A DNA stretch of 46,865 nt from an uncultured Mycoplasmatota bacterium (lineage in GTDB: Bacteria > Bacillota_I > Bacilli_A > RF39 > UBA660): contig CAOKKL010000001.1 of the NCBI GenBank assembly GCA_948469065.1, positions 1 through 46,865 on the forward strand, written 5' to 3'. Position numbers and translations under genes: made by a program. The notes under the pieces were generated by a model. The model worked only from the letters and a program-made list of their open reading frames with translations, ran no database searches and was not told the DNA's origin. The stretch's first letter is position 1. Each line of letters opens with the position of its first letter. Of the stretch, positions 2,118-42,723 are shown in pieces.

Positions 2118-4170
2118 ATTATCTTTTAAAAATATTCAAAAAAGTTTTAAAGATTATGCCATTTATTTTTTTACTTTAATATTAGGAGTTTCGATTTTTT
2201 ATATTTTTAATGCTTTAGATAGTCAAACGGTAATGTTAAATATTTCTTCTTCTACCGCTGAGATTGTTAAACTTATGATCGAATTATTAGGAGCTGTTAG
2301 TATTTTTATCTCTTTTATTTTAGGATTTTTGATAATTTATGCTAGCCGTTTTTTAATCAAAAGAAGAAAAAAAGAATTTGGAATTTATCTTACATTGGGA
2401 ATGAGTAAACGAAAAATTTCTATGATATTATTTATGGAAACATTATTCATTGGGATGATTTCTCTTGCAATTGGACTTATTTTAGGTATTTTATTATCGC
2501 AGTTTATGAGTATTTTTGTAGCCAATTTATTTGAAGCCGATCTAACCCGATTTACGTTTATTTTTTCAAAAACGGCTATGATGAAAACACTAATTTATTT
2601 TGGTTTAATGTATCTTTTTGTAATGATATTCAATACCATTAATATAACGAAATGCAAATTAATTGATTTATTACATGCAAGTAAAAAATCAGAAAGAATT
2701 CATTTAAAAAATCCAGTGATTTGTACCATCATTTTTCTCATTTCGATTAGTTTTTTAACTTATGCTTATTATTCTGTAACTGTTGGAGTCGAAAAATTAT
2801 TAAATTTTCAAGATATTTTAACTCCAATCGTGATTGGGTGTATCTCTACTTTTTTCTTATTCTGGTCGCTTTCAGGATTGTTAGTCAAAATTGTTACCAA
2901 AATGAAAAAAATTTATTTTCATGGTTTGAATAGTTTTACGATAAAACAAGTAAGTAGCAAAATCAATACTACAGTATTTTCCATGACTTTAATTTCTTTA
3001 ATGCTATTTGTAACCATATGTGTATTATCTTCGGCATTGTCACTTAAAAATTCGATGACATCGAACTTAAAAACCTTAGCTCCTGTCGATATCGAATTAG
3101 AAAAAAGAAGAAATCTTACTTTAAAAGAAATAGAAAATCAGTGGAATCTAAATCAAAATATGATAGAGGATTCTACCATTTCTTTGGAAGAAACTTTAAA
3201 AAAATTCGAAATTGATTATAAAAATATATTTGAAGATACCATTTTATTTTCTGTTTATAACGATCAAATAACTTTAAAAGATACGCTAGGTACTTATTAT
3301 GAAGAAGCCAAAAGAAATTATCCTTACTTAAGAGATACTTTTAAAGAAGATATGATTCGTTTAAGTGATTATAATGCAGTTGCTCAACTATTTGGTCTTT
3401 CTCAATATACTTTAAATGAAAATGAATATATATTAATATCAGATTATGAAACTATGATTCCGCTTCGAAATGAAGCCCTAAAAAGAAATACATCATTGAC
3501 AATATTGGGAAAAAACTATTTTCCGAAATATTCAGAATGTCAGGATGGATTCATTCATATTTCAAGTAATCATATCAACATGGGAATTTTTATTGTTCCA
3601 GATAATGCTGTTAATGATCATTTAATTGATAAAGAAATTTGGCTTGCTAATTATAAAAATGCTAAAGAAAAAGAAGAAAAACAAAAAATAGAAGATGTTA
3701 TTTTAAATATAGAAAAGCATCCTTATATAAAAAATACAAGTTTAAATATTACAACAAAAATTGCTTTATATGAAGCGAGTATCGGACTTGGAGCCCTTGT
3801 TACATTCATTGGTCTTTATATTGGAATTATATTCTTAATTAGTAGTGCAGCCATACTTGCTTTAAAAGAGTTGTCGGAGAGTAGTGATAATATAGAACGT
3901 TTTCAAATGTTACGAAAAATTGGAGTTGACGAAAAAATGATTCATCAAGCTTTATTTTATCAGATTGGCATATTCTTTTTATTTCCTCTTATCATCGCAA
4001 TGATTCATTCTATTTTTGGTATTTCATTTTGCAATTATATATTAGAAACAATTGGCAATGAAAAATTATTAGAATCTATTATTATGACTTCCATCTTTTT
4101 AGTTATCATTTATGGTGGATATTTTCTAATCACTTATATTTGTAGTAAAAATATAATCAAAGAAAAGTAA
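2095..4170 (+). CDS. FtsX-family ABC permease with a large extracellular domain (BceB-like)
   Basis: The protein is 691 aa. It has about 4 TM helices, then a ~200-aa hydrophilic loop (residues ~330-560), then more TM helices, which is the BceB architecture. The start could instead be ATG 2107 (MLCKLSFKN...). Confidence 0.85.
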   Translation: MIIPMLCKLSFKNIQKSFKDYAIYFFTLILGVSIFYIFNALDSQTVMLNISSSTAEIVKLMIELLGAVSIFISFILGFLIIYASRFLIKRRKKEFGIYLTLGMSKRKISMILFMETLFIGMISLAIGLILGILLSQFMSIFVANLFEADLTRFTFIFSKTAMMKTLIYFGLMYLFVMIFNTINITKCKLIDLLHASKKSERIHLKNPVICTIIFLISISFLTYAYYSVTVGVEKLLNFQDILTPIVIGCISTFFLFWSLSGLLVKIVTKMKKIYFHGLNSFTIKQVSSKINTTVFSMTLISLMLFVTICVLSSALSLKNSMTSNLKTLAPVDIELEKRRNLTLKEIENQWNLNQNMIEDSTISLEETLKKFEIDYKNIFEDTILFSVYNDQITLKDTLGTYYEEAKRNYPYLRDTFKEDMIRLSDYNAVAQLFGLSQYTLNENEYILISDYETMIPLRNEALKRNTSLTILGKNYFPKYSECQDGFIHISSNHINMGIFIVPDNAVNDHLIDKEIWLANYKNAKEKEEKQKIEDVILNIEKHPYIKNTSLNITTKIALYEASIGLGALVTFIGLYIGIIFLISSAAILALKELSESSDNIERFQMLRKIGVDEKMIHQALFYQIGIFFLFPLIIAMIHSIFGISFCNYILETIGNEKLLESIIMTSIFLVIIYGGYFLITYICSKNIIKEK

Positions 4171-5992: not shown

Positions 5993-6813
5993 ATAATAAA
6001 GAAACTTTTTTATTACGATTTTTATATCATACAAAAATAGGAAGAATTTTTTTGTATTTTTTTATTCAACCTTTATTTTCAAAATTAATCGGTTCTTTTT
6101 TGAATACAAGAATCTCTATTCTACTGATAAAACCATTTGTAAAAAAGAATAAGATTGATTTAACTAGATTTCAAAAGCAAAAATATACTTCTTTCAATGA
6201 TTTTTTTTGTCGTCGATTAAAATATACAAAAATTTTATCGGATAAAACACAGTTTTTGTCTCCTTGTGATGGGAAATTGTCAATCTATAAAATAAAAAAG
6301 AATTTAACTTTTCAAATAAAGCATTCTATTTATTCTTTAAAAACCTTATTACAAGATGAAGAATTAGCAAATCTTTATCAAAATGGAATTTGTCTTATTT
6401 TTCGTTTAACTCCTGATGATTATCATCGCTATCATTTTATCGATGATGGAGAAATTCTTGTGCAAAAGAAAATTTCTGGAGTATTACACACAGTACGTCC
6501 GATTGCCATGGAACAATTTTCTATATTTCATGAAAATACAAGAGAAATTACGAAAATGAAAACGGCAAACTTTGGAATCGTTACCCAAATTGAAGTTGGG
6601 GCATTAATGGTTGGCAAAATTCAAAACCAGAAAAAAAGAAATTTTAAAAAAGGAGAAGAGAAAGGTACTTTTTTATTTGGAGGATCTACTATCATTTTAT
6701 TAATGGAGGAAAATAAAGTAGAAATGAATCCTATTTTATTAAAAAATACAAAGCAAAATTTAGAAACACAAATATACTATCAAAATTTCATTGGTAATAG
6801 CAAAAAGATTTAA
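5935..6813 (+). CDS. psd: Phosphatidylserine decarboxylase proenzyme
   Basis: LTPDDYHRYHF and the C-terminal FGGSTIILL (G-S-T self-cleavage motif) are present. The N-terminus overlaps pssA by 58 nt, so the true start is uncertain. Confidence 0.85.
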   Translation: MSSNRPLHHRDISFTTIPINNKETFLLRFLYHTKIGRIFLYFFIQPLFSKLIGSFLNTRISILLIKPFVKKNKIDLTRFQKQKYTSFNDFFCRRLKYTKILSDKTQFLSPCDGKLSIYKIKKNLTFQIKHSIYSLKTLLQDEELANLYQNGICLIFRLTPDDYHRYHFIDDGEILVQKKISGVLHTVRPIAMEQFSIFHENTREITKMKTANFGIVTQIEVGALMVGKIQNQKKRNFKKGEEKGTFLFGGSTIILLMEENKVEMNPILLKNTKQNLETQIYYQNFIGNSKKI

Positions 6814-6864
6814 GATATAATAAGTTAAGTTGAAAAGAAAATTCGTAAGTAAATAAATGCAAAG

Positions 6865-6899
6865 AAATACCATAATAATAAAAAGATTGGTATTTTTTT
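6865..6899 (+). terminator. Rho-independent terminator of the lipid operon
   Basis: AAATACCA-15 nt-TGGTATTT followed by TTTT. Confidence 0.55.
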
Positions 6900-7092
6900 A
6901 TTGCCAAAATAGTAAAAATATAATATTTCGTCGAGGAAATCCAAGTCATCAAGTGGCAGAAAATTTTCAAGAAAAAGAAGTGGCAGAAAATTTTGAATGT
7001 AAACATTCTCGCCCTCGTACTATGTAAGATTAATCTATACTTTAAAGTAATGTGTAAATATAAATAATTTTTTTAAAACAAAAATTATAAAA

Positions 7093-31962: not shown

Positions 31963-32739
31963 ATGAACAGATTAAACGAATTATTACAAGAATTAGGAAT
32001 ATCAAAAGTACGTCTAGCTAAGTATTTAGGAGTATCTAGACAAATGGTTTATAATTATTTAGAGCTAGATGATATTAATAAATGGCCAAAAGAAAAAAAA
32101 TTGTTACTTTTTAAACTTTTAGAAATTGATGATGGAGAAGAAGGAACAATTAGTGGAATTAAAGTAACTACTGATTATTTAATGAGTGTAGAAAATCGTT
32201 TGAATCAAGGAGTAAAAAATAGTTCTGATTTAGATAGTTATTTTGATTTAAAAGGGCTTAACAAAGAAGATCAAACTCTTTTAGCAGATATCACATATCT
32301 TTTAAAAGAAAAATTATTAGATGATAGTAAGCATGATGAAAATCGCTATGCTGCACTGTATTTATATCATATGTTACAATCGATTGATAACGTTCCAGAA
32401 ATTAAATATATTTTTGGATATATGTCAAAAACAACAGGATTTACGGATCCAGAAGAATATAAATTTCAAGAAGATAAACAATTTATATTTGAAGGAATTT
32501 TATATTCTGCTCTAACATTATATAATAACGGAGGAGCAAGTCGAAGTAAATTAGCAGAGAGCCATCGACGTTTTGTTCAAGAAATAGAACAAAAAAATGA
32601 AGAAAAATTAACTCGTACTCAACAATTAAATACTATAAAAGTTCAAGCATTAAAAGAATTAAACTATACACAACTTAATGATACTAATGCCTCAGAGGTT
32701 TTAGAAAAAATGGCAGAGATTGAATCAAGAAAAGTTTAA
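31963..32739 (+). CDS. Helix-turn-helix (Xre-like N-terminus) protein of unknown function. It is the last gene before dif.
   Basis: The N-terminus LGISKVRLAKYLGVSRQMVYNYL is an HTH. A terminator hairpin AGAAAAGT-N8-ACTTTTCT plus a T-run lies at 32728-32756. Confidence 0.6.
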   Translation: MNRLNELLQELGISKVRLAKYLGVSRQMVYNYLELDDINKWPKEKKLLLFKLLEIDDGEEGTISGIKVTTDYLMSVENRLNQGVKNSSDLDSYFDLKGLNKEDQTLLADITYLLKEKLLDDSKHDENRYAALYLYHMLQSIDNVPEIKYIFGYMSKTTGFTDPEEYKFQEDKQFIFEGILYSALTLYNNGGASRSKLAESHRRFVQEIEQKNEEKLTRTQQLNTIKVQALKELNYTQLNDTNASEVLEKMAEIESRKV

Positions 32740-32809: not shown

Positions 32810-32837
32810 ATTTAACATAATGTATATTATGTTAACT
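32810..32837. other. dif: Chromosomal dif site (XerC/D recombination site), forming the left junction of the prophage
   Basis: The site is ATTTAACATAA-TGTATA-TTATGTTAACT. E. coli dif is GGTGCGCATAA-TGTATA-TTATGTTAAAT, and 20 nt are contiguous and identical. B. subtilis dif has the right arm TTATGTAAACT. Confidence 0.75.
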
Positions 32838-33422
32838 CTTTAATATATTGAATTCCAATCAACTTCTGTATGATATCTTTTACTACAGATATCTGCATTA
32901 TGTTCTTTTACTACATCTCTTAAATAACTGTAATATCTTATAAAATAGTTCCATATGCCATTTTGATTTGCATATTTTCCAACTTGTGACATTTTTACAT
33001 AATCTCCTTGTGAATGTATATATTCTTGTATACTCATTGCATGCTCACCACCTGGTATCTCATCTGTTACCAATTCTTTAAAACGTTTTAACAATTTATC
33101 TGAATTACTTTTTACATCTTCTACATCATATTGGTATTTATTATCATCTTTGAAATGAATCAAATATTTTAATGAACCGTTAAAACTCTTTTTAATGGGT
33201 TCTATCATGTTTTCTGCAACCCCTACTCTCTTTGATAGGGCAGATATGGTACATGCTGTTTTGAGCTTTATAACAAAGTGATAGTGTGCTTTCTTTAGTT
33301 CTCCTTCTTCTGTAACATCCTTATATAGATTACTTCCTTTTGTTCCAATAGATTAAACATTTGATTATCAAATTTTTCATCATCTTCATAAATTACACAT
33401 AAATAATTATAATTTCTTTTTT
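32825..33422. repeat. 598-bp direct repeat, copy A
   Basis: By my base-by-base reading it is identical to 38789-39386. It holds rep from codon 3 to the stop, plus 15 nt extending into the XerD arm. Confidence 0.93.
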
Positions 33423-33429
33423 CATTCAT
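32840..33429 (-). pseudogene. rep: Rolling-circle replication initiator, pMV158 RepB-like (Rep_2/HUH). This is the full-length copy, with an apparent -1 frame break.
   Basis: The ATG at 33429 follows RBS AGAGGAAAAG. Frame 0 reads MNEKRNYNYLCVIYEDDEKFDNQMFNLLEQKEVIYI.. and stops at 33295-33297. The -1 frame continues ...KDVTEEGELKKAHYHFVIKL (HUH) ...SLKYLIHFKDD (catalytic Tyr region) to 32840. Confidence 0.7.
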
Positions 33430-33468
33430 AAAACTTTTCCTCTCTTACATGAATTACATAAATTACAT

Positions 33469-33506
33469 ATAAATTGCATTATAGACGTAGCCCTTATGCA
33501 ATTTAT
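33469..33506 (-). promoter_or_regulatory. Candidate double-strand origin (dso) hairpin with a nick-site-like loop
   Basis: The stem is 11 bp, ATAAATTGCAT / ATGCAATTTAT, with a 16-nt loop. The minus-strand loop reads AAGGGCTACGTCTATA, which resembles the pMV158 nick region TACTACGAC. Iterons AATTACATA x2 and AATTGCAT lie at 33452-33479. Confidence 0.45.
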
Positions 33507-33615
33507 GACCTATACCATAATAATCACTTCCTTAATCACTAACGCGCTATCGCTTGTTGTACTTGTTAAAGCTCATAAACTAAAGTTTAATCGCTCTAAC
33601 AAGTTTCAATTAAAT

Positions 33616-33885
33616 CTAATTCCCTAAAAAATGTCCGATTACTTTCATCATTGCATCTTTGATTACGGAAAATCCATGCCATGAAATCACGAGTGAAATT
33701 AAGGCTACTACTACTGGTACATAAAAGAAATAAGATAAAAATGATATACCACCTTGTAACATGGTTGAAATCGTTGTTAAAACACTTGATATTTCACTAG
33801 GAAAGCTAGGTATTAATCCACCTAATATGGCAGAAATTACTCCTAATATATATAAAACTGCTTTTAAGAGTAAATATAATATCAC
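33616..33885 (-). CDS. Small 3-TM membrane protein (pVI-like minor coat/assembly candidate)
   Basis: The protein is 89 aa and almost entirely hydrophobic. It has a GTGA overlap with the upstream pIII-like gene. Confidence 0.55.
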   Translation of the reverse strand: MILYLLLKAVLYILGVISAILGGLIPSFPSEISSVLTTISTMLQGGISFLSYFFYVPVVVALISLVISWHGFSVIKDAMMKVIGHFLGN

Positions 33886-35174
33886 GGGTTATCCCTCCTA
33901 ATCTCATAAGAATCTTTTGATGTTTGAACACTATCATTTTTACTTAAAATACTAAAGAACTTCGCTGCTGCAAAATTGATGAATAAGCAAACTAACACAA
34001 TAGAAGTAACTGTTCTTATCGTTTCAATATGAGTCGATAAAATTACATTATCATTTAAACAAATTAACTGATTTTCCCAAAACGTCACTGAATCAAACAT
34101 GGAAGTTGCTCCTACTGTAAACTCTGGAAATTCAATACAGCCATTCGCATTTACTAGCCCTAATAAGCTTGTAAAAATAGTAATAAAGAAATTAATACTT
34201 TCTCCTACAAATCCAAAGTTTTCTGATAAATCTTTTGAATCATTGATGATTTCATATAATTGATTATCTGTGGGTACAAAGAGTGCTTTTAATGCCTCAA
34301 TTAATAAATTAACTAACTTTGACGGTAACTCTATAATTCCAGTAAAAATTCCTTTTAGCTTACACAGTAATCCGCAACTTTCACTTGAGGTATCACTACT
34401 ATTAGATGTTATGGAATTATTTAAATTGTCTAAACGATTATTAGTTTGTTGTTGATTTTTATTCATCGTATCTGTTTGATTAATAATTGCTGAAGAAATT
34501 GTATTAGAAGAATTATCACTTTTCTCTAGTGCGAAATATCTTCCAATTCCAACGGTAGTATCCCCTATTGCAAAGCCAGAAGAAGATGTAATATTAAAAA
34601 TAACAGCTGTAATATAATGAACGTCTCTTTGTAAAGGACAAGATACCGTTAAAATTCCAGAACCAATATTTCCAATAAATTGACATGGTAACATAGGGCC
34701 ATCTTGTTTTATAAATACGCTCGCTGAAAGAATTTTTTCATCAAATTGCATCGATTCTAAAATTGAACTACAACCGCCAAAAAGTGAACCAAAATGATTA
34801 AAAGGACCTTCACCCTCATAATATCCATCTTCATCAAGAATTATTAAATCGTTTTTACATGTTGTATTTAAAGAAACCGGATCAGAAGAAATATAAATAG
34901 GAGCTTCAAAAAAAAGATTAAAATAAACATAATCTGCATCAAAATCATAATCAATTCGAGTTGTTGGTTTAAATCCATTTCTAATAGAACTTATTCTAAC
35001 ATATTGTTGACTTTTATAAGTATTAGTTCCATTATCAAAAGTTAAAGCATGGTCACTCCATGTTCCGTCCATAACCCATTGTTTGGTATCATAATAGTAA
35101 TAATCTCCTGCACTTACATTTTGAATAAATAAAAAACCGCATATTATGATTAATAAATAAAATATCTTTTTCAT
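33882..35174 (-). CDS. Secreted 430-aa protein with a low-complexity linker and a C-terminal membrane anchor (pIII-like adsorption/minor coat candidate)
   Basis: The signal peptide is MKKIFYLLIIICGFLFIQNVSA. An N/S/T/Q-rich linker (SDNSSNTISSAIINQTDTMNKNQQQTNNRLDNLNNSITSNSSDTSSES) is followed by C-terminal TM helices. Confidence 0.6.
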   Translation of the reverse strand: MKKIFYLLIIICGFLFIQNVSAGDYYYYDTKQWVMDGTWSDHALTFDNGTNTYKSQQYVRISSIRNGFKPTTRIDYDFDADYVYFNLFFEAPIYISSDPVSLNTTCKNDLIILDEDGYYEGEGPFNHFGSLFGGCSSILESMQFDEKILSASVFIKQDGPMLPCQFIGNIGSGILTVSCPLQRDVHYITAVIFNITSSSGFAIGDTTVGIGRYFALEKSDNSSNTISSAIINQTDTMNKNQQQTNNRLDNLNNSITSNSSDTSSESCGLLCKLKGIFTGIIELPSKLVNLLIEALKALFVPTDNQLYEIINDSKDLSENFGFVGESINFFITIFTSLLGLVNANGCIEFPEFTVGATSMFDSVTFWENQLICLNDNVILSTHIETIRTVTSIVLVCLFINFAAAKFFSILSKNDSVQTSKDSYEIRRDNP

Positions 35175-35701
35175 AATCCAAATATTCTACAAACAATATA
35201 TAAGAATAGAAATATAAATAATCCGATTGAAATAGATATCAATATCATTAAAAATATATCTTTCTTTTTTGACTTCGCATAATAAAATGAATTTATTATC
35301 TTTAACTCACTATCATTTATTTTCACAAAAGTATAATCATTATAAGTATTATATTTATATAGCTCATCACATGTTGCTGTTGTATTACTAGCATTGGTTA
35401 CATCAAATTCTTTATTTGTTAGACATAAGTAATAATCTGTGTAAGTACTATATCCACTTTTGATATAATTTGATGATATTAAGTAATGATTATAATTACT
35501 TCGTTCATATATATCTTGTAAAGTAATGAGTGTACTTTCATTAATTGTTCGCAAATTATCATTGATTGTCATCGCTTTCGCGCAACGACTTGCGGCTAAA
35601 CCGATGACAACAAATACAATGATGTATCCCAATATGCGAAACAAAGAATGATAAATACTGGAAACTAAATCATGCATCATTTTATTTAATATACTTTTCA
35701 T
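35171..35701 (-). CDS. Bitopic membrane protein (N- and C-terminal TM). It may supply the membrane part of the assembly machinery.
   Basis: TM helices are at RILGYIIVFVVIGLAA and IFLMILISISIGLFIFLFLYIV. The gene overlaps both neighbours. Confidence 0.5.
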   Translation of the reverse strand: MKSILNKMMHDLVSSIYHSLFRILGYIIVFVVIGLAASRCAKAMTINDNLRTINESTLITLQDIYERSNYNHYLISSNYIKSGYSTYTDYYLCLTNKEFDVTNASNTTATCDELYKYNTYNDYTFVKINDSELKIINSFYYAKSKKKDIFLMILISISIGLFIFLFLYIVCRIFGL

Positions 35702-36410
35702 ATTGTTTATAAATCCCTTCTATTTTATCTTCTTTTAATGGTGTCCAAAATGGACTATCTTTTCCAAAATCAATTATTTGGTCCGTATCATACATTTGAT
35801 AATGTATTTTCCTTTTATGTGTATAAAAGCAACCAAATGCTTTCTTTCCTACTAATTCCTCTCTTTGCTTTTCGAAATCTCGAAAAACAACACAATGAGT
35901 TAAAAAATGTAAATAAGTATTACACGTAATAATCGTATTAATCTGTTCTCTCATTACTAATTGTAATCTTGAGAATACTTGACTTGTTAAAATGAATACT
36001 CTTTGCTGTTTTCGATTCTGTGAAATTACTTGAAACATATTGACATCTGCATTTTTACTTTCTAATGAGTTAAATAAAATATGTGCCTCATCAATCAAAA
36101 ATATGGTCGGTTTATTATAATTAAAGAATAACTGATAATATTTTTCAAAACGTATAATATTTTCTTTTGGTATATTTTTTAGTATATTTGTATTAATATT
36201 TACATTTGTTACCAAATAAACATCTTTCCAATCTTGATAAATATTATTAATCAGTCTTACTGCTGAAATAGTTTTTCCACTACCCTGCTTTCCACAGAAA
36301 CAATATACTCCATGATATGGAAATCTTGTTTTATTCCATTCATGCAAATATTTTAAATGTGTTGGAAGCTCAAATAAATTGACTTCTCCTTTTAAATCTT
36401 TTCTACGCAC
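35682..36410 (-). CDS. Zot / pI-like phage assembly P-loop ATPase
   Basis: Walker A is CGKQGSGKT, Walker B is TIFLIDEAH, and SQNRKQQRVFILTSQ resembles the Zot-family R-H...Q segment. The start is GTG, preceded by GGAGTGA. Confidence 0.78.
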   Translation of the reverse strand: MRRKDLKGEVNLFELPTHLKYLHEWNKTRFPYHGVYCFCGKQGSGKTISAVRLINNIYQDWKDVYLVTNVNINTNILKNIPKENIIRFEKYYQLFFNYNKPTIFLIDEAHILFNSLESKNADVNMFQVISQNRKQQRVFILTSQVFSRLQLVMREQINTIITCNTYLHFLTHCVVFRDFEKQREELVGKKAFGCFYTHKRKIHYQMYDTDQIIDFGKDSPFWTPLKEDKIEGIYKQYEKYIK

Positions 36411-36538
36411 TCATCATCACTCCAAAAATCTTTATCAATACATTTGATTTTTTCTTCTAAGTCTTTCATTTCTTTTAGAAGTTTCATAGCTTGATAATTA
36501 CAAAAAAGACCCATGATAATCAATAAAAAATTATTCAT
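36392..36538 (-). CDS. 48-aa mini-protein (one N-terminal hydrophobic segment)
   Basis: The product is MNNFLLIIMGLFCNYQAMKLLKEMKDLEEKIKCIDKDFWSDDECVEKI*, with RBS AGGTGAG. It overlaps the Zot-like gene start. It is not in the ORF track because it is under 60 aa. Confidence 0.35.
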   Translation of the reverse strand: MNNFLLIIMGLFCNYQAMKLLKEMKDLEEKIKCIDKDFWSDDECVEKI

Positions 36539-36542
36539 CTAC

Positions 36543-36701
36543 TCACCTACTTCCAATATGTAATCCTTTTCCCGTAAAAGATGAGATTACCATATTAATT
36601 AACATTACTATCACGGATATAGTAAGTGCCAACAATCCTGATGTTACTAAAATTGGTTTTATCGATTCAAAATAAGCTAAATATAGATTTGTTATATCCA
36701 T
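36543..36701 (-). CDS. 52-aa single-TM mini-protein (pVII/pIX-like candidate)
   Basis: The product is MDITNLYLAYFESIKPILVTSGLLALTISVIVMLINMVISSFTGKGLHIGSR*, with RBS AAAGGGGTGA. Confidence 0.4.
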   Translation of the reverse strand: MDITNLYLAYFESIKPILVTSGLLALTISVIVMLINMVISSFTGKGLHIGSR

Positions 36702-36712
36702 TTAATCACCCC

Positions 36713-36751
36713 TTTAAAAAAAAATAAAAGGGGAAACCTAAGTTTCCCCTA
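36713..36751 (-). terminator. Strong rho-independent terminator immediately after the major coat gene
   Basis: The minus strand reads AGGGGAAAC-ttag-GTTTCCCCT followed by TTTTATTTTTTTTT. Confidence 0.75.
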
Positions 36752-36753
36752 GG

Positions 36754-36978
36754 CTAAACATGAAAACCATGTCCAGCAAAAGCACTTTGTAACATGGCAA
36801 TACCTTTTCTTGCTCCCCAATAGAACAAATAAAGTGTCAAACATGCTGCAATTACGATACCCAATACAGCAGCAATATTGGCAACGGTTAAGTTGTCAGT
36901 AAAAATTGCTAATACTGATTGAATACCACTTTTAACTGTATCAAAGTTAAAAGTAATTGTGGATGCTGTATCCGACAT
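36754..36978 (-). CDS. Major coat protein candidate (pVIII-like)
   Basis: The protein is 74 aa with an acidic/polar N-terminus and a TM helix IAAVLGIVIAACLTLYLFYWG, followed by ARKG. The RBS is AAGGGGG. It has the highest local G+C, and a terminator follows it, as in inoviruses. Confidence 0.6.
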   Translation of the reverse strand: MSDTASTITFNFDTVKSGIQSVLAIFTDNLTVANIAAVLGIVIAACLTLYLFYWGARKGIAMLQSAFAGHGFHV

Positions 36979-37098
36979 AAATAAACCCCCTTTTTTTTAT
37001 TCCTTTTTCCTTCATAGAAAGGAGATGAGAAAGCCAAGCACTAACACTTTCCTGGTATGATGAACCGTTTTCGTTTAATTCAATTTAAACGCACTTTG

Positions 37099-37356
37099 CT
37101 ATTTCCACCACTGTCGATGGTTTCTTTTTATATAAATCACTTTTTTCTTTTTTCCATACTTTAAGCGATTTATAGTCTTTTCTAATATTTGGATCACAAT
37201 TTCTTTCTTACTTTTCTTTTGATAAATAAGTGGTAATATTGCAATCAATTCTTCGTTAAATCCATTTACATATTCAATATTGGCATTCCAAGGAATATAA
37301 CCAATTCTAGTTTTAAAACATTTATGATTGTGACTATACCAAATCGATAATACCAT
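37099..37356 (-). CDS. Hypothetical basic 85-aa phage protein
   Basis: The ORF lies within the operon and overlaps the upstream gene by 23 nt. Confidence 0.4.
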   Translation of the reverse strand: MVLSIWYSHNHKCFKTRIGYIPWNANIEYVNGFNEELIAILPLIYQKKSKKEIVIQILEKTINRLKYGKKKKVIYIKRNHRQWWK

Positions 37357-37633
37357 TTTTGGTTACAATCTGTGTTAATTGTACAAATGGTTTTAACGGA
37401 TTTCTTGGATTATCTTTTGTTTCGATAATTCCAGTTATATTTTGTTGAATAATGTCTTCTGGAATTTTGTCCCATACATCAAACCCAGTAAAGAACATCG
37501 GTGCAACAATCGAACCTTTTATCTTATCCGATTTTGCCATTTTATCCGTTAGAACATAATCAACTCTTGTATAAGGTTCTTTTCCTTTTGGACTACACTT
37601 AGTAACCGTTAAAATTCTCATTTTTAATTCCAT
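37334..37633 (-). CDS. Hypothetical 99-aa phage protein. The ssDNA-binding (pV-like) role is suggested only by its size and position.
   Basis: RBS AAGGGGTGA. The gene sits in the early part of the operon. I recognised no motif. Confidence 0.4.
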   Translation of the reverse strand: MELKMRILTVTKCSPKGKEPYTRVDYVLTDKMAKSDKIKGSIVAPMFFTGFDVWDKIPEDIIQQNITGIIETKDNPRNPLKPFVQLTQIVTKNGIIDLV

Positions 37634-37812
37634 TTTCTTTCACCCCTTTCATCATAAATTTCAACTTTCATTTCTTGGATTCCTATTTCAATAAACTCTA
37701 TCAAAGACCTAATAAGACTATCTTTTCCATTTGTAATAATTTCATCACAATGTCCAGTTTCTAATTGAAACCATATTTTATATTTTTTCATTTCTCTTCC
37801 TCTCTTAGCCAT
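37624..37812 (-). CDS. Hypothetical 62-aa phage protein
   Basis: The ORF is translationally coupled to its neighbours. Confidence 0.4.
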   Translation of the reverse strand: MAKRGREMKKYKIWFQLETGHCDEIITNGKDSLIRSLIEFIEIGIQEMKVEIYDERGERKWN

Positions 37813-37895
37813 ATATGGCCATGTTCTTTTGTTTTTTCCATGTCTAAATAAAGACCACCTTTTTCATATAGGTAATATAAGTTCTCTATTGTCAT
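37788..37895 (-). CDS. 35-aa mini-ORF
   Basis: The product is MTIENLYYLYEKGGLYLDMEKTKEHGHIWLREEEK*. It is preceded by AGGAGATGTCAGA and has an ATGA overlap with the upstream mini-ORF. Confidence 0.3.
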   Translation of the reverse strand: MTIENLYYLYEKGGLYLDMEKTKEHGHIWLREEEK

Positions 37896-38038
37896 TCTGA
37901 CATCTCCTCTATTTGAGAATTAATAATTCTTATTGTTTTCATAATTGCCTCCGAATAAGAATAGTAATTTTTTTCTAAGCTTTTCGTTAAATATTTGATT
38001 AAGCCTGATTTTAACTTTTCTAGTTCTGTTTTTGTCAT
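37892..38038 (-). CDS. 48-aa mini-ORF, the first gene of the leftward phage operon
   Basis: The product is MTKTELEKLKSGLIKYLTKSLEKNYYSYSEAIMKTIRIINSQIEEMSE*. Its initiation region, AGGAGATGTCAGAATGACAA, is identical to that of the next ORF. Confidence 0.3.
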   Translation of the reverse strand: MTKTELEKLKSGLIKYLTKSLEKNYYSYSEAIMKTIRIINSQIEEMSE

Positions 38039-38055
38039 TCTGACATCTCCTTTTT

Positions 38056-38119
38056 ACAACTTATCTGTTGTTAAATTAATATTACAACACATCTGTTCAA
38101 TTGTCAACACTTTTGTTGT
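38056..38119. promoter_or_regulatory. Three operator-like 16-bp palindromes in the divergent switch region
   Basis: ACAAC-TTATCT-GTTGT (38056-38071), ACAAC-ACATCT-GTTCA (38084-38099) and TCAAC-ACTTTT-GTTGT (38104-38119). Confidence 0.45.
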
Positions 38120-38161
38120 AAAATATCGTATAAAATTTATATAAAAGAAATGAGGTGAATT

Positions 38162-38389
38162 ATGTATTATACTCAAAGATTACAATGGATAAGAGATTGT
38201 AAAAATATAACACAAAAACAAATAGCTGACGCTTTAGAAATAAAACAACAACAATATGCAAGATATGAAAAAGGTATAAACATAATGCCCATTACTTATT
38301 TACCAAAGATATGTAAATTTTTAAACGTGTCATCTGATTATATATTGGGATTAACAGATGAAATGAAAGAATTAAAAAAAGAAGACTAA
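38162..38389 (+). CDS. Xre-family HTH repressor (phage lysogeny/immunity regulator candidate)
   Basis: ITQKQIADALEIKQQQYARYEKG is an HTH_3 motif. The RBS is GAGGTGA. The gene is divergent from the structural operon. Hairpin GAAGACT-aatc-AGTCTTC lies at 38378-38395. Confidence 0.8.
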   Translation: MYYTQRLQWIRDCKNITQKQIADALEIKQQQYARYEKGINIMPITYLPKICKFLNVSSDYILGLTDEMKELKKED

Positions 38390-38475
38390 TCAGTCTTCTC
38401 TATAAATCTTTAGTTAAGCCGTAAGGTATCATTATAATCACCGATAATTATAGACGTAGGATTGGAGGTGAAATA

Positions 38476-38607
38476 ATGAGTAAAATTTTATCAAGTTTTA
38501 AAAATATTGTAATAGATTGTATACTAATCTATGCAGTCTTTGCATTATTTATTGGCTTTGATAAAGCTAATGAACTAGTTATGAATATCATTAACATGTT
38601 CATTTAA
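38476..38607 (+). CDS. 43-aa hydrophobic mini-ORF
   Basis: RBS GGAGGTGA. The product is MSKILSSFKNIVIDCILIYAVFALFIGFDKANELVMNIINMFI*. Confidence 0.3.
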   Translation: MSKILSSFKNIVIDCILIYAVFALFIGFDKANELVMNIINMFI

Positions 38608-38629
38608 GCCTTACGGCTTAATTAAGGAC

Positions 38630-38761
38630 TTATTCGTCCCAAAATTCTTCATCTAAATCACTAATTTTCAAGTTACCAATAATTTTATTATTTTTATCTA
38701 TTTTATCATTAATTTTATAAACACTATATCCTAATGTACATATTAATAAAAAATTTATCAC
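38630..38761 (-). CDS. 43-aa mini-ORF downstream of rep on the phage circle
   Basis: RBS GAAAGGAGA with a GTG start. The product is VINFLLICTLGYSVYKINDKIDKNNKIIGNLKISDLDEEFWDE*. It converges on hairpin TTAAGCC-ttac-GGCTTAA (38604-38621). Confidence 0.3.
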   Translation of the reverse strand: MINFLLICTLGYSVYKINDKIDKNNKIIGNLKISDLDEEFWDE

Positions 38762-38773
38762 TGTATTATCTCC

Positions 38774-38801
38774 TTTCACTTTTTCTTTTATTATGTTAAC
38801 T
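38774..38801. other. attP-like degenerate dif-type site at the unit-to-unit junction
   Basis: The site is TTTCACTTTTT-CTTTTA-TTATGTTAACT. Its right (XerD-type) arm is identical to that of the dif at 32810-32837, while the left arm and central region diverge. Identity between the two loci begins at the last two bases (TA) of the central region. Confidence 0.5.
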
Positions 38802-39386
38802 CTTTAATATATTGAATTCCAATCAACTTCTGTATGATATCTTTTACTACAGATATCTGCATTATGTTCTTTTACTACATCTCTTAAATAACTGTAATAT
38901 CTTATAAAATAGTTCCATATGCCATTTTGATTTGCATATTTTCCAACTTGTGACATTTTTACATAATCTCCTTGTGAATGTATATATTCTTGTATACTCA
39001 TTGCATGCTCACCACCTGGTATCTCATCTGTTACCAATTCTTTAAAACGTTTTAACAATTTATCTGAATTACTTTTTACATCTTCTACATCATATTGGTA
39101 TTTATTATCATCTTTGAAATGAATCAAATATTTTAATGAACCGTTAAAACTCTTTTTAATGGGTTCTATCATGTTTTCTGCAACCCCTACTCTCTTTGAT
39201 AGGGCAGATATGGTACATGCTGTTTTGAGCTTTATAACAAAGTGATAGTGTGCTTTCTTTAGTTCTCCTTCTTCTGTAACATCCTTATATAGATTACTTC
39301 CTTTTGTTCCAATAGATTAAACATTTGATTATCAAATTTTTCATCATCTTCATAAATTACACATAAATAATTATAATTTCTTTTTT
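38789..39386. repeat. 598-bp direct repeat, copy B
   Basis: It is identical to 32825-33422, with an offset of 5,964 bp. Confidence 0.93.
38804..39386 (-). pseudogene. rep: Second rep copy, lacking the start codon and promoter/origin
   Basis: It has the same sequence as copy A from codon 3 onward. Upstream it abuts the TAA stop of ORF 39385-39666 instead of the rep ATG. Confidence 0.7.
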
Positions 39387-39666
39387 ATTTAAATAAAATT
39401 TTATTAAAATTTACTTTATTTGCAATGTTATCTTTCGTACTTCTGATTCCTTGTGAATACATATCTATATAAAGATTATTTGAATCAATTTTTCCAGTTT
39501 TCACAATATAGTAATCAGAATACTGTTCTATAACTACTTCAATATGATCATCAAAATTCAAAATATAATAATTTTTGTTGAAGCTATATTGTAGCCAACA
39601 TGATATAAAATTAACTATAATAATTAACATAAAAATGATAATAAGTTGATATAAAAAATGAATCAA
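39385..39666 (-). CDS. Hypothetical 93-aa membrane-anchored protein
   Basis: It has an N-terminal TM helix (LIIIFMLIIIVNFISCW). Two of the three bases of its stop codon lie inside repeat copy B. Confidence 0.4.
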   Translation of the reverse strand: MIHFLYQLIIIFMLIIIVNFISCWLQYSFNKNYYILNFDDHIEVVIEQYSDYYIVKTGKIDSNNLYIDMYSQGIRSTKDNIANKVNFNKILFK

Positions 39667-39750
39667 ATAAGACGATATAGAAAAATTTAGATTAGACGCA
39701 TTGTCTTTCTTTTGCCCAATACTAAATATATATAAACATATAAATACTAT

Positions 39751-40170
39751 TTATAAAGTTTCGATAAATAATAATGTTATTGTTTTAAAATCATTTAATA
39801 TTACAAATAAAAAAATATAAATACTAAAAATAATGATTGTTAAATATATACAATTTTTCGAAAGAATCTTCGTTTTCTTTTTTCTTATTTTGCACCAAAC
39901 ATAAGAACATATTTGAATAATAGATTTTGTAAATAAAGTACATATTAAAAATACAAAATAAAGAAGCAATATAGAATAAATATTAAATTCAACTCGAAAT
40001 AAAGAATAATCAACTTGAAAATAAATACTTTTTAAATAATTTTGTAAACATTGTGATACACTAATTGCTGCTGTAAAAAAAGTAAAAAATATTGCAATTA
40101 ATTGCACAATAGTTGAAATGTTATTTTTTATTTTCTTCCATATCAATATATATAATTCTTTTTCTTGCAT
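39751..40170 (-). CDS. Hypothetical 139-aa polytopic membrane protein
   Basis: It has about 4 TM helices, is very AT-rich, and has RBS GGTGAG. Confidence 0.4.
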   Translation of the reverse strand: MQEKELYILIWKKIKNNISTIVQLIAIFFTFFTAAISVSQCLQNYLKSIYFQVDYSLFRVEFNIYSILLLYFVFLICTLFTKSIIQICSYVWCKIRKKKTKILSKNCIYLTIIIFSIYIFLFVILNDFKTITLLFIETL

Positions 40171-41811: not shown

Positions 41812-42723
41812 TTAATTTTCTTCTTTTTTATTGCGAGGATGATAATCGTAATCTTTTTTTATTTTTTCATTTGATACGTGGGTATAAATTTGAGTTGTCG
41901 AAATATCACTATGTCCTAATAATTCTTGAACAACTCTTAAGTTTGCACCATTATTTAATAAATGAGTAGCAAAAGAATGACGTAATACATGTGGAGAAAC
42001 GTCTTTTTTAATATTCTTCTCATTACAAAGTGATTTTAATAGTTTAAAAAAGCCTTGACGAGATAGTTTTCCTTTACGATTATTAATAAAAAAATAATCA
42101 GAAGAGGAATTCTTCAAAAGTTTTGAACGATATTCTTCATAATAAAGAATAAGATATTTTTTAGAAATATTATTGATTGGAATTATCCTTGTTTTATTCC
42201 CTTTTCCAAGAACATGAACAAAATCTTCTTGAAAATCAATGTCTTGTATTTTTAAGTTTATTAATTCACTAATACGCATTCCTGTCGCATATAAAAGTTC
42301 TAACATAGCTTTATTTCGATAATCGTAAGAACTGCGAAGTTCTATATTTAAAAGAGTATCCACTTCACTAATTGATAAATATTTGGGAAGTTTTTTTGGA
42401 ATTTTTGGTCTTAGAATAAAATCACATGGATTTTCTTTTAAAATCCCCTCTTCGATTAAAAATTGATAATATGATTTTAAAACGGTTAAATAATGAGTTT
42501 TTGTGGTTGCATTTTTTTCTTCTAGTGTTTTTAAAAATTCTTCTAATATTTTAGCTGTACAAGTAATTGAAGTTTTTTTAACTTTATCTAAATAATTTTT
42601 AAAAATAAGTAAATTATAATAGTAAGATGAAATTGTATTTTTCGATAATTTGCGCTCAAATTGTAAATAATTTAAATATTGAATCATTTTTGATTCTAAT
42701 AAATCATTTTGAACATCTTTCAT
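41812..42723 (-). CDS. xerD: XerC/XerD-family tyrosine recombinase
   Basis: The N-terminal SAM-like domain reads (I)QYLNYLQFERKLSKNTISSYYYNL. The catalytic segments are ...ATGMRISEL..., HVLRHSFATHLL and LGHSDISTTQIYTHV. I chose start ATG 42723, behind AGGAAG. Confidence 0.85.
   Translation of the reverse strand: MKDVQNDLLESKMIQYLNYLQFERKLSKNTISSYYYNLLIFKNYLDKVKKTSITCTAKILEEFLKTLEEKNATTKTHYLTVLKSYYQFLIEEGILKENPCDFILRPKIPKKLPKYLSISEVDTLLNIELRSSYDYRNKAMLELLYATGMRISELINLKIQDIDFQEDFVHVLGKGNKTRIIPINNISKKYLILYYEEYRSKLLKNSSSDYFFINNRKGKLSRQGFFKLLKSLCNEKNIKKDVSPHVLRHSFATHLLNNGANLRVVQELLGHSDISTTQIYTHVSNEKIKKDYDYHPRNKKEEN

Follow-up and report, generated by a model that had tools for sequence, protein, structure and literature searches.

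Positions 32810-39386 of the 46,865-nt stretch analysed here (the whole of contig CAOKKL010000001.1 of an uncultured Mycoplasmatota bacterium, assembly GCA_948469065.1; hereafter the window, with a G+C content of about 26%) hold 1.1 copies of one 5,964-bp inovirus-like element, which begins inside the chromosomal dif site and carries a Zot-type ATPase, a rolling-circle initiator and no recombinase. The original prediction, made from the letters of this DNA, had taken the whole span for a single compact genome. It is instead one full unit followed by a 5'-truncated second copy of the initiator gene, rep, and the unit length that had been given proved to be exactly the spacing of a perfect 598-bp direct repeat (32825-33422 and 38789-39386). 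On the minus strand, open reading frames (ORFs) of 48, 35, 62, 99, (85), 74, 52, 48, 242, 176, 430 and 89 codons overlap or abut one another and lead into rep (Table 1); all the minus-strand ORFs that had been listed, the Walker motifs and the divergent Xre gene were found, and the pattern of hydrophobic segments agrees with the earlier description. The unit has the size of an inovirus genome (about 4.5-12 kb) and the one-strand operon of overlapping genes that goes with it. Taken together with the comparisons below, this anatomy makes it highly probable that the element is a temperate inovirus-type prophage, integrated at dif by the Xer machinery of its host, i.e. an integrative mobile element exploiting Xer (IMEX).

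Only Zot, Rep_OBD and a helix-turn-helix (HTH) domain were recognized by Pfam in the unit, and no recombinase domain was found there, in agreement with the predicted lack of an integrase; the ORFs outside these three families are under 100 residues or encode membrane or secreted proteins. The 242-aa protein matches the Zot family (PF05707) at 34.6 bits, above the gathering cut-off of 20.3. The 74-aa gene is the most conserved of the element (81-95% identity in relatives; ratio of nonsynonymous to synonymous substitution rates, dN/dS, 0.03-0.12), its product finds a sole match in phage databases, in bajarodino virus 33, and the terminator that had been noted behind it is present with a 9-bp stem. 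The 89-aa protein is 83-87% identical across relatives (dN/dS 0.07-0.12) and matches no family. All relatives conserve the C-terminal ~150 residues of the 430-aa protein, whereas its N-terminal part varies, a pattern expected of a receptor-binding adsorption protein; the 176-aa protein may supply the membrane part that is absent from the short Zot ATPase. Neither of these two has a Pfam or PHROG match, nor do the small ORFs, and the 74-aa and 52-aa coat candidates match no coat family or fold, so that the family searches proposed with the original prediction bore out Zot and Rep (PF01719) and no coat protein. For the 99-aa protein, which has no sequence match in the PDB, the AlphaFold2 (AF2) model (pLDDT 85.6) is a six-stranded beta structure whose top PDB matches in Foldseek are oligonucleotide-binding (OB)-fold proteins that bind single-stranded DNA (ssDNA), namely PrgE, mitochondrial SSB, SsbA/B and PriB, at E>=0.04 and TM-scores of 0.4-0.5; an ssDNA-binding role is only suggested by this model. 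Across relatives, the structural genes have dN/dS values of 0.03-0.14 at saturated dS, which indicates strong purifying selection.

Table 1. Features of the element and its junctions in the window (TM, transmembrane; positions count from the first letter of the window)
Feature	Position	Strand	Remarks
Host dif, left prophage junction	32810-32837	+	ATTTAACATAA-TGTATA-TTATGTTAACT, 28 bp; XerC-type arm ATTTAACATAA 32810-20, central TGTATA 32821-26, XerD-type arm TTATGTTAACT 32827-37
Repeat copy 1	32825-33422		2 nt of central region, XerD-type arm, rep minus first 7 nt
rep, RepB/pMV158-type HUH initiator	32840-33429	-	ORF pieces 33295-33429 and 32840-33208
Putative double-strand origin	33445-33506	-	hairpin and direct repeats just upstream of rep
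Origin direct repeats (iterons)	33452-33468		ATGTAATT, after hairpin
Origin hairpin	33469-33506		11-bp stem ATAAATTGCAT/ATGCAATTTAT, 16-nt loop AAGGGCTACGTCTATA; CTACGTC at 33484-33490
Long imperfect hairpin, then motif ACAAGCGATAGCGCG	33557-33609	-	between 89-aa gene and origin
89-aa multi-TM protein, pVI-like minor virion or membrane candidate	33616-33885	-	2-3 hydrophobic segments
430-aa secreted protein, pIII-like adsorption candidate	33882-35174	-	signal peptide, N/S/T-rich linker, C-terminal hydrophobic segments
176-aa protein	35171-35701	-	TM segments at N- and C-terminus; 31-53% identity in relatives, same position
Zot/pI-like morphogenesis ATPase, 242 aa	35682-36410	-	Walker A GKQGSGKT, Walker B FLIDEAH
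48-aa small protein	36392-36538	-	short N-terminal hydrophobic stretch
52-aa single-TM coat-like protein	36543-36701	-	acidic N-terminus, basic C-terminus; 53-77% identity in relatives
Intrinsic terminator	36729-36750	-	3 nt after 74-aa ORF; 9 pairs, 5 GC, then T-run
74-aa single-TM protein, best major-coat candidate	36754-36978	-	TM residues 35-53, then basic patch
85-aa very basic protein	37099-37356	-	18 K+R; among relatives only in L036
99-aa candidate ssDNA-binding protein	37334-37633	-	predicted OB-like beta-barrel
Three small early ORFs, 62, 35 and 48 aa	37624-38038	-	variable module absent from relatives
Promoter-like TTGACA-17-TAATAT	38079-38107	-	consensus match only; before minus-strand operon, divergent from xre
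Xre/Cro-type HTH repressor candidate, 75 aa	38162-38389	+	HTH_3 PF01381, 45.1 bits; PHROG 8
Hairpin terminator after xre	38378-38401		
Two small ORFs	38476-38779		43 aa on + (one TM), 49 aa on -; between xre and attP-type site
attP-type junction, unit 1/truncated copy	38774-38801	+	TTTCACTTTTT-CTTTTA-TTATGTTAACT
Repeat copy 2	38789-39386	-	5'-truncated rep, without start codon or origin
Host XerD-like tyrosine recombinase	41812-42723	-	2.4 kb from right end of span

The left junction is a canonical dif, as the original prediction had it. The 28-mer occurs once in the window, even when up to three mismatches are allowed, and in none of 100 shuffled sequences. Its arms are named by analogy to E. 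coli dif (GGTGCGCATAATGTATATTATGTTAAAT; PMC2731167), from whose XerD arm, TTATGTTAAAT, the right arm of the window dif differs by 1 nt. The first repeat copy opens with the two final nucleotides of the central region; at the internal junction the left arm is degenerate, and what it has in common with dif is 'TA' plus the perfect XerD-type arm. All 31 large ORFs to the left of dif lie on the plus strand, and the GC skew passes from +0.18 on the left to -0.00 on the right within the window and -0.19 beyond it, a change of sign that was also seen at the locus in four other genomes. The identification as dif is thus supported by a canonical, unique sequence at a switch of GC skew and gene orientation, which is moreover empty in relatives. 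The recombinase gene that had been noted nearby (41812-42723) encodes a XerD-like protein, with 330.8 bits against a cut-off of 279 for NCBIfam NF001399, 328.6 against 329.6 (just below) for TIGR02225, and Pfam Phage_integrase and SAM_1 domains. For the predicted spore-forming host, SpoIVB and CotF genes (precomputed Pfam) are the only signs.

Some further observations concern this terminus region. The XerD-like gene is linked to dif, at a distance of ~2-9 kb, in every genome examined (including L020, L028, L029, L033, L034, L037 and L043-L049; comparison genomes and contigs are given L numbers throughout), an arrangement that recalls xerS/difSL and xerH/difH. The two dif arms of the window species form a 10/11 inverted repeat; a single-recombinase Xer system, which such palindromic arms might reflect, was weakened as a candidate by phage-free relatives, whose left arms are clearly different (7-8/11 matches). 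Adjoining dif is the gene of a 258-aa protein with an N-terminal HTH (31963-32739, plus strand), with homologues in L028, L029, L033, L034, L036, L037, L043-L051 and L056. It is 83-93% identical between species, as against 75-84% for mnmA and RarA, and still stands beside dif or the prophage in the host of L056, where identity is only 47%; some 5,600 homologues were found, none of which brought a family assignment, and the protein may be a terminus- or dif-associated DNA-binding protein.

The HUH initiator of the original prediction stands as to its type, RepB/pMV158, and fails as to its integrity in the window. Through a 10-bp deletion at 33319/33320, which the second copy shares at 39283/39284, the HDQD motif is lost and the reading frame changes; three-frame translation shows the N-terminal piece ending at a stop, with the HUH motif HYHFV in the downstream frame. 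An independent assembly, L001 (ENA ERZ14863997), which is 99.7% identical in the same chromosomal context, has 10 extra bases at both positions and encodes an intact 199-aa Rep with the motifs HDQD, HYHFV and YLIH, matching PF01719 (Rep_OBD) at 70.4 bits; the truncated copy is open in the independent sample L022 as well. No sequence match to Rep was found in the PDB. If the deletion is real, the prophage copy of the window is probably replication-defective and could not replicate autonomously.

In the double-strand origin of pMV158, the nick site lies in the loop of a hairpin with iterons near it, and the block upstream of rep has the same layout, i.e. the hairpin and iterons of a pMV158/RepB rolling-circle replicon with a nick site predicted by comparison with the pMV158 nick sequence. 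Its DNA fold has a z-score of -3.8, it is conserved in all Rep_OBD relatives, with compensatory changes of stem and iterons in L035 and L036, and its loop sequence GGGCTACGTCTA has a counterpart in bajarodino virus 33, where TACTACGAC lies in a GC hairpin in the same location. The truncated second copy has no such origin. A second copy of the loop motif, CCTACGTCTATAAT, stands between xre and the 43-aa ORF (38446-38459, minus strand); as a second origin or terminus it was dropped, being absent from relatives. The long hairpin with ACAAGCGATAGCGCG at 33557-33609 is conserved in the window, L033, L034 and L036, and is a candidate packaging signal or minus-strand origin.

At the other end of the span, the second repeat copy ends at 39386, 7 nt inside the start of rep, where it abuts the stop codon of a chromosomal gene for a 261-aa membrane protein. 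This junction was also found in the independent assemblies L001 and L022, and both phage-chromosome junctions (258-aa gene-dif-rep, and truncated rep-261-aa gene-ZIP) were recovered across independent samples and assemblers (L001, L016, L022). The gene beside the truncated rep (39385-40170, minus strand) is a single ORF in L001, and in the window substitutions at 39714-39752 split it into ORFs of 93 and 139 aa; the junction falls within its stop codon, it is 40-42% identical or absent in relatives, and the protein has no Pfam or PHROG match. Neither in the window nor in L001 do the two copies of rep differ from each other; between the two assemblies they differ by three single-nucleotide polymorphisms (SNPs) and the 10-bp insertion/deletion (indel), which reflects either gene conversion or the re-use of one assembly node. 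The extra 598 bp would be what is left of an older or tandem copy after a deletion that ran outward from the 5' end of rep. Such a pairing of remnant and full copy fits a tandem lysogen that has lost most of its older copy, and it also fits a new integration (by Xer or by RecA) beside an old remnant like the one in L028. A circular form of the unit would have the very junction that the 1.1-mer contains internally, the k=31 unitigs of Logan end ~30 nt inside the repeat ends, and unitigs of this length cannot phase a 598-bp repeat.

That the element belongs to the inoviruses, as originally predicted, is supported by its relatives. Among GenBank phages (tblastn), only Inovirus records matched, the best being bajarodino virus 33 (PQ006162.1), a circular genome of 6,660 bp from rodent faeces with 74% identity in Zot, 87% in the 89-aa protein and 81% in the 74-aa protein. 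Bajarodino viruses 33, 41, 39 and 23 share Zot, the membrane protein, the large secreted protein, the ~90-aa protein and Rep, with a divergent repressor in bajarodino 23 as well, and circular genomes that are further removed keep this gene order and lack an integrase. Zot has 122 homologues at E<=1e-10, and ~86 clusters with 53-99% identity in a large protein database; IMG/VR holds 114 more distant relatives, found with an alignment as query, and one close contig (75%) on which the att site is not shown, although a scan of IMG/VR with the single Zot protein returned no match. The early region (99, 85, 62, 35 and 48 aa) is replaced in most relatives. One contig of a metagenome-assembled genome (MAG), L030, with 6,561 bp and a terminal overlap of 130 bp, comes to exactly one unit of L029 (6,431 bp) once the overlap is subtracted, which hints at an episomal form and could also be a graph cycle. 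In L029 (7172-7603), as in L030-L032, a Dam-type N6-adenine methyltransferase (PF05869, 107 bits) follows just after the attP-type site, a cargo that is absent from the window phage. A RepB-type initiator is not unusual for the group, since bajarodino 33 has one too. That circular ssDNA leaves the cell in a filament, with no lysis, is a prediction to which the circular virome genomes of relatives and the circular-looking L030 lend indirect support. Genome mining has already revealed inoviruses in Firmicutes (PMC6813254), and in the literature searched we found no earlier description of 'bajarodino' viruses or of an inovirus in Erysipelotrichaceae.

At least five other species (L029, L033, L034, L036 and L037) carry related mosaic prophages at this site, and integrated structures like that of the window lie on contigs of 75-174 kb in other species. 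The dif site is the same or nearly so at the same locus in L028, L029, L033, L034 and L036; throughout these and L043-L051 the XerD-type arm is invariant, with the left arm and central region varying, and in L037 the arm is slightly different (TTATGTAAACC). As a general rule the XerD site is the better conserved half of dif (PMC2731167). In L033 (JGI), dif lies right 3' of rep, and at the far site the XerD-type arm is perfect, the central region is that of dif and the left arm is degenerate, which gives a 21-bp direct repeat; L034 (JGI) has the same structure with a 23-bp repeat, L029 (an NCBI 'Bacilli bacterium' MAG) has, like the window, a longer repeat (415 bp) that includes a rep remnant, and L036 (Logan) is a contig with dif directly after rep. 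L037-L039 come from a more distant host and have a Rep of another family (PF23343); there the repeat is 16 bp, consisting of the last central base, the XerD-type arm and 4 nt, and the central regions of dif and far site differ. The repeats of L033 and L034 thus cover the whole dif central region and the XerD-type arm, that of L037 only the last central base and the arm, and the left arm of the far site is degenerate in L029, L033, L034 and L037, as in the window.

The original prediction had proposed a comparison with sister genomes, and an empty dif was indeed found at the same locus in nine contigs from two related species (L043-L051). In L048-L051 the empty locus reads 258-aa gene, ATTTCGCTTAA TATATA TTATGTTAACT, ZIP gene, and in L043-L047 the site is ATTTCATATAA TATATA TTATGTTAACT; searches with the phage proteins in five of these contigs (L043, L044, L046, L048 and L049) detected none. 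The DNA beyond the XerD-type arm differs between strains of one species (L043 10347-10957 against L046 8615-9279), one having a 190-aa membrane protein beyond dif and the other ORFs of 41 and 141 aa, which suggests that small variable islets accumulate on the XerD-arm side of dif. In L028 (positions 6463-7090 of the uncultured Erysipelotrichaceae MAG contig CAOJNP010000002.1, 85-92% identical in nucleotides to the window) only dif and an N-truncated rep are found, with no phage body; this remnant is 96% identical to Rep in amino acids, and the dif-rep cassette is inverted relative to both flanking genes, unlike in all other genomes, through either a real terminus inversion or a misassembly of the MAG. 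The idea that this remnant is bounded by a junction made at the Rep nick site was dropped, since sequence from either side of the putative nick is retained. A scan of genome contigs with the 25-nt dif core returned only L028, the core being too specific for a broad survey; exact-pattern scans for the attP junction (metagenome contigs) and the origin hairpin (metagenome and viral contigs) gave no hits, but the hairpin-bearing L033 and L034 were not returned either.

From these structures a cycle can be proposed for a temperate, rolling-circle inovirus of an uncultured low-GC gut bacterium (Erysipelotrichaceae / 'Bacilli bacterium' MAG group), which, having no recombinase, would enter dif through host Xer. 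Its attP would lie immediately 3' of rep and comprise a perfect XerD-type arm (TTATGTTAACT), 1-8 matching inner bases and a degenerate left arm, so that integration would yield, in order, chromosome, complete regenerated dif, rep, the remainder of the phage, a far site of degenerate arm, phage central region and XerD-type arm, and again chromosome. Both the window and L037 have kept the host central region at dif and the phage central region at the far site, which places the crossover at or within 1-2 nt of the boundary between central region and XerD-type arm; an exchange on the XerC side, in the style of CTXphi or VGJphi, would have swapped the central regions, and we therefore infer the XerD side from these end-points, to which decay of the far site after integration would be an alternative. 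The identical central regions of L029, L033 and L034 are uninformative on this question. The crossover would thus fall at the XerD cleavage point, with strand exchange catalysed by XerD and the junction resolved by replication or a second exchange. In the lysogen, the Xre repressor would keep the minus-strand operon off; upon excision by the reverse Xer reaction, Rep would nick the hairpin loop at GGGCTACG/TC and start rolling-circle replication, the OB-fold 99-aa protein would probably coat the ssDNA, and the Zot ATPase with the 176-aa membrane protein would extrude a filament made of the 74-aa (and 52-aa) coat, the 430-aa adsorption and the 89-aa proteins.

Relatives differ in what stands downstream of rep. 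In bajarodino 33 and L035 (Zot 74-80% identical to that of the window phage), a tyrosine integrase directly follows rep, where attP lies in the window, and L035 abuts a tRNA-Leu. L056 (IMG/VR UViG_3300006525_000124; Zot 36%) lies beside a homologue of the 258-aa host gene and is bounded, at 1088-1124 and 6823-6859, by a 29-bp repeat of 9 nt, XerC-type arm, central region and TTA; at its rep end there is a full Firmicutes-type dif, ACTTCCTATAA TTAATA TTATGTTAACT. Read from this repeat, L056 would be a TLCphi-like element with a C-arm-type attP, and a second type of attP among Gram-positive inoviruses. The circular, integrase-free bajarodino 41 (L040, PQ006142.1) contains an exact match to the XerD arm, TTATGTAAACT, on the minus strand at 3976-4003, ~90 nt after rep and in the same orientation as in the window; it overlaps a perfect TTGACA-17-TATAAT promoter and could be a coincidence. 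We put forward only tentatively, at somewhat less than even odds, that these phages form an IMEX class not yet described, in which attP amounts to little more than a lone XerD-binding arm (the part of dif best conserved among hosts), exchange on the XerD side mirrors that of TLCphi, and three integration modules have been swapped within one lineage at a single position downstream of rep, namely a XerD-arm attP, a XerC-arm attP (L056) and a self-encoded tyrosine integrase that targets tRNA genes.

Several points weigh against integration of a functional inovirus at dif by Xer. No dif-like site was found at 39386, so that the array is not a clean succession of attL, prophage and attR; rep is frameshifted in both copies of the window; the inverted dif-rep remnant of L028 is left unexplained by the model; a single Xer gene is visible within the window; and the coat, adsorption and ssDNA-binding assignments come without a significant family or fold match. 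What could be read directly is anatomy, homology, site identity, occupancy and emptiness across species, and purifying selection, and it is from these that dependence on Xer, the side of strand exchange, excision, circular and ssDNA forms and virion formation are inferred. Two more points, the perfect 598-bp repeat that flanks the unit and the similar divergence of phage and host between species (Zot 81-84%, mnmA 79-84%), are those on which the two best alternatives build.

The first of these is that the window copy entered through RecA, which would have recombined the rep of a circular phage with a remnant of rep already present beside dif, with no Xer reaction between dif and attP. The end product would be the same by either route, and the sister species L028 does carry dif with a rep remnant and no phage body. 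The repeats of L033, L034 and L037, however, which span only 16-23 bp at the dif core, give RecA too little homology, and the remnant itself needs an earlier integration at dif, which makes this an unlikely origin of the window copy. Alternatively, a decaying or domesticated prophage may have become fixed near the terminus and been inherited vertically, its shared position reflecting common descent. The broken rep of the window and the constancy of locus and orientation in the window, L029, L033, L034 and L036 would agree with this, as would the parallel divergence just mentioned. Against it, the early modules are unrelated (p99, p62, p35 and p48b have no matches in L029, L033 and L034), the adsorption proteins range from 342 to 557 aa, and the Rep family of L037 is a different one; dif is phage-free in L043-L051, whose flanking 258-aa protein is 83-87% identical, yet occupied in the more distant L037 (66%); and to these come free circular relatives in viromes, strong purifying selection and an intact rep in other strains. 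We regard purely vertical descent as improbable.

An assembly artefact, in which a repeat node was used twice or a circular phage threaded into the chromosome, could produce the 1.1-unit structure or the identity of the rep copies, which are indeed alike within each assembly and different between assemblies (3 SNPs and the 10-bp indel), and the Logan unitigs break near the repeat ends; with both chromosome-phage junctions present in independent samples and assemblers and structures of the same kind on long contigs of other species, we give it very little credence. Equally hard to credit is a rolling-circle plasmid or phage satellite that carries Zot and makes no filament of its own, as a 2026 preprint read a Zot-bearing element in a murine Anaeroplasmataceae MAG, for although Rep is of the plasmid pMV158 type and the coat, adsorption and ssDNA-binding candidates match no family, the gene order of the unit is fully inovirus-like (small single-TM proteins are conserved, the coat candidate is followed by a terminator and there is a pIII-like protein) and is syntenic with circular virome genomes deposited as Inovirus.

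A temperate inovirus that uses dif through host Xer thus remains the reading we favour, and it extends a known principle, that of Xer-exploiting filamentous phages, rather than revealing a new one. The IMEX of a published review come from Proteobacteria such as Vibrio, Neisseria and Enterobacter (PMC5357621), and in full-text literature searches neither an inovirus integrated at dif nor any IMEX turned up for Firmicutes/Bacillota. Within that literature, the use of dif by a Bacillota inovirus clade, an attP reduced to the XerD arm and the swapping of attP types and integrase at one position appear to be undescribed. A whole clade of filamentous phages in uncultured rodent- and gut-associated Bacillota apparently hijacks Xer, which would explain 'integrase-less' inovirus prophages that att-site pipelines call non-canonical, and sibling phages that exchanged an integrase for a dif-like site provide a natural comparison. 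The system is of interest to specialists of Xer recombination and of filamentous phages, possibly as a test system for Xer activation outside FtsK-controlled dimer resolution in Gram-positives, and the 17-23-bp core could act as a landing site for engineering such bacteria.

Among known systems, the VGJphi-type IMEX of Proteobacteria, with which Xanthomonas Cf/phiLf and Yersinia CUS-1/Ypf are also counted, have an attP with both Xer arms, homology on the XerC side and catalysis by XerC. The window element resembles them as a small inovirus without integrase, with a double-stranded dif-like attP and a functional dif regenerated at one end, and differs in its Gram-positive-type Bacillota host, its RepB/pMV158-type initiator and an attP that keeps the XerD-type arm, has a degenerate XerC-type arm (so too in L029, L033, L034 and L037) and shows its homology on the XerD side, which in the window and L037 is limited to 1-2 nt beside the XerD arm. 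With CTXphi it shares the filamentous phage at dif via host Xer and the tandem or partial arrays there; a CTXphi-type folded ssDNA attP was rejected, as there is no inverted XerD-arm-like copy (up to 1 mismatch) inside the unit, and, unlike in CTXphi, the truncated second copy has no origin, so that rolling-circle production from the array in the CTXphi style would not be possible. The attP of the satellite phage TLCphi and of the gonococcal genetic island keeps the XerC arm and central region and has a divergent XerD arm (PMC5357621). These elements, too, have one good and one divergent arm and a first or only exchange attributed to XerD, of which the window element would be the mirror image, keeping the XerD arm with the XerC arm divergent, whereas the distant L056 does fit the TLCphi type. 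A pI-like ATPase and small TM coat candidates are shared with the uncultivated Firmicutes inoviruses of IMG/VR and of Roux et al. 2019 (PMC6813254), whose text makes no mention of dif or Xer. The closest likeness is with bajarodino 33 and L035, in identity (Zot 74-80%, 89-aa protein 83-87%, 74-aa protein 81%), in gene order and in a RepB-type Rep with its nick-site hairpin; these phages have a tyrosine integrase after rep, and the window element has a dif-like attP in its place.

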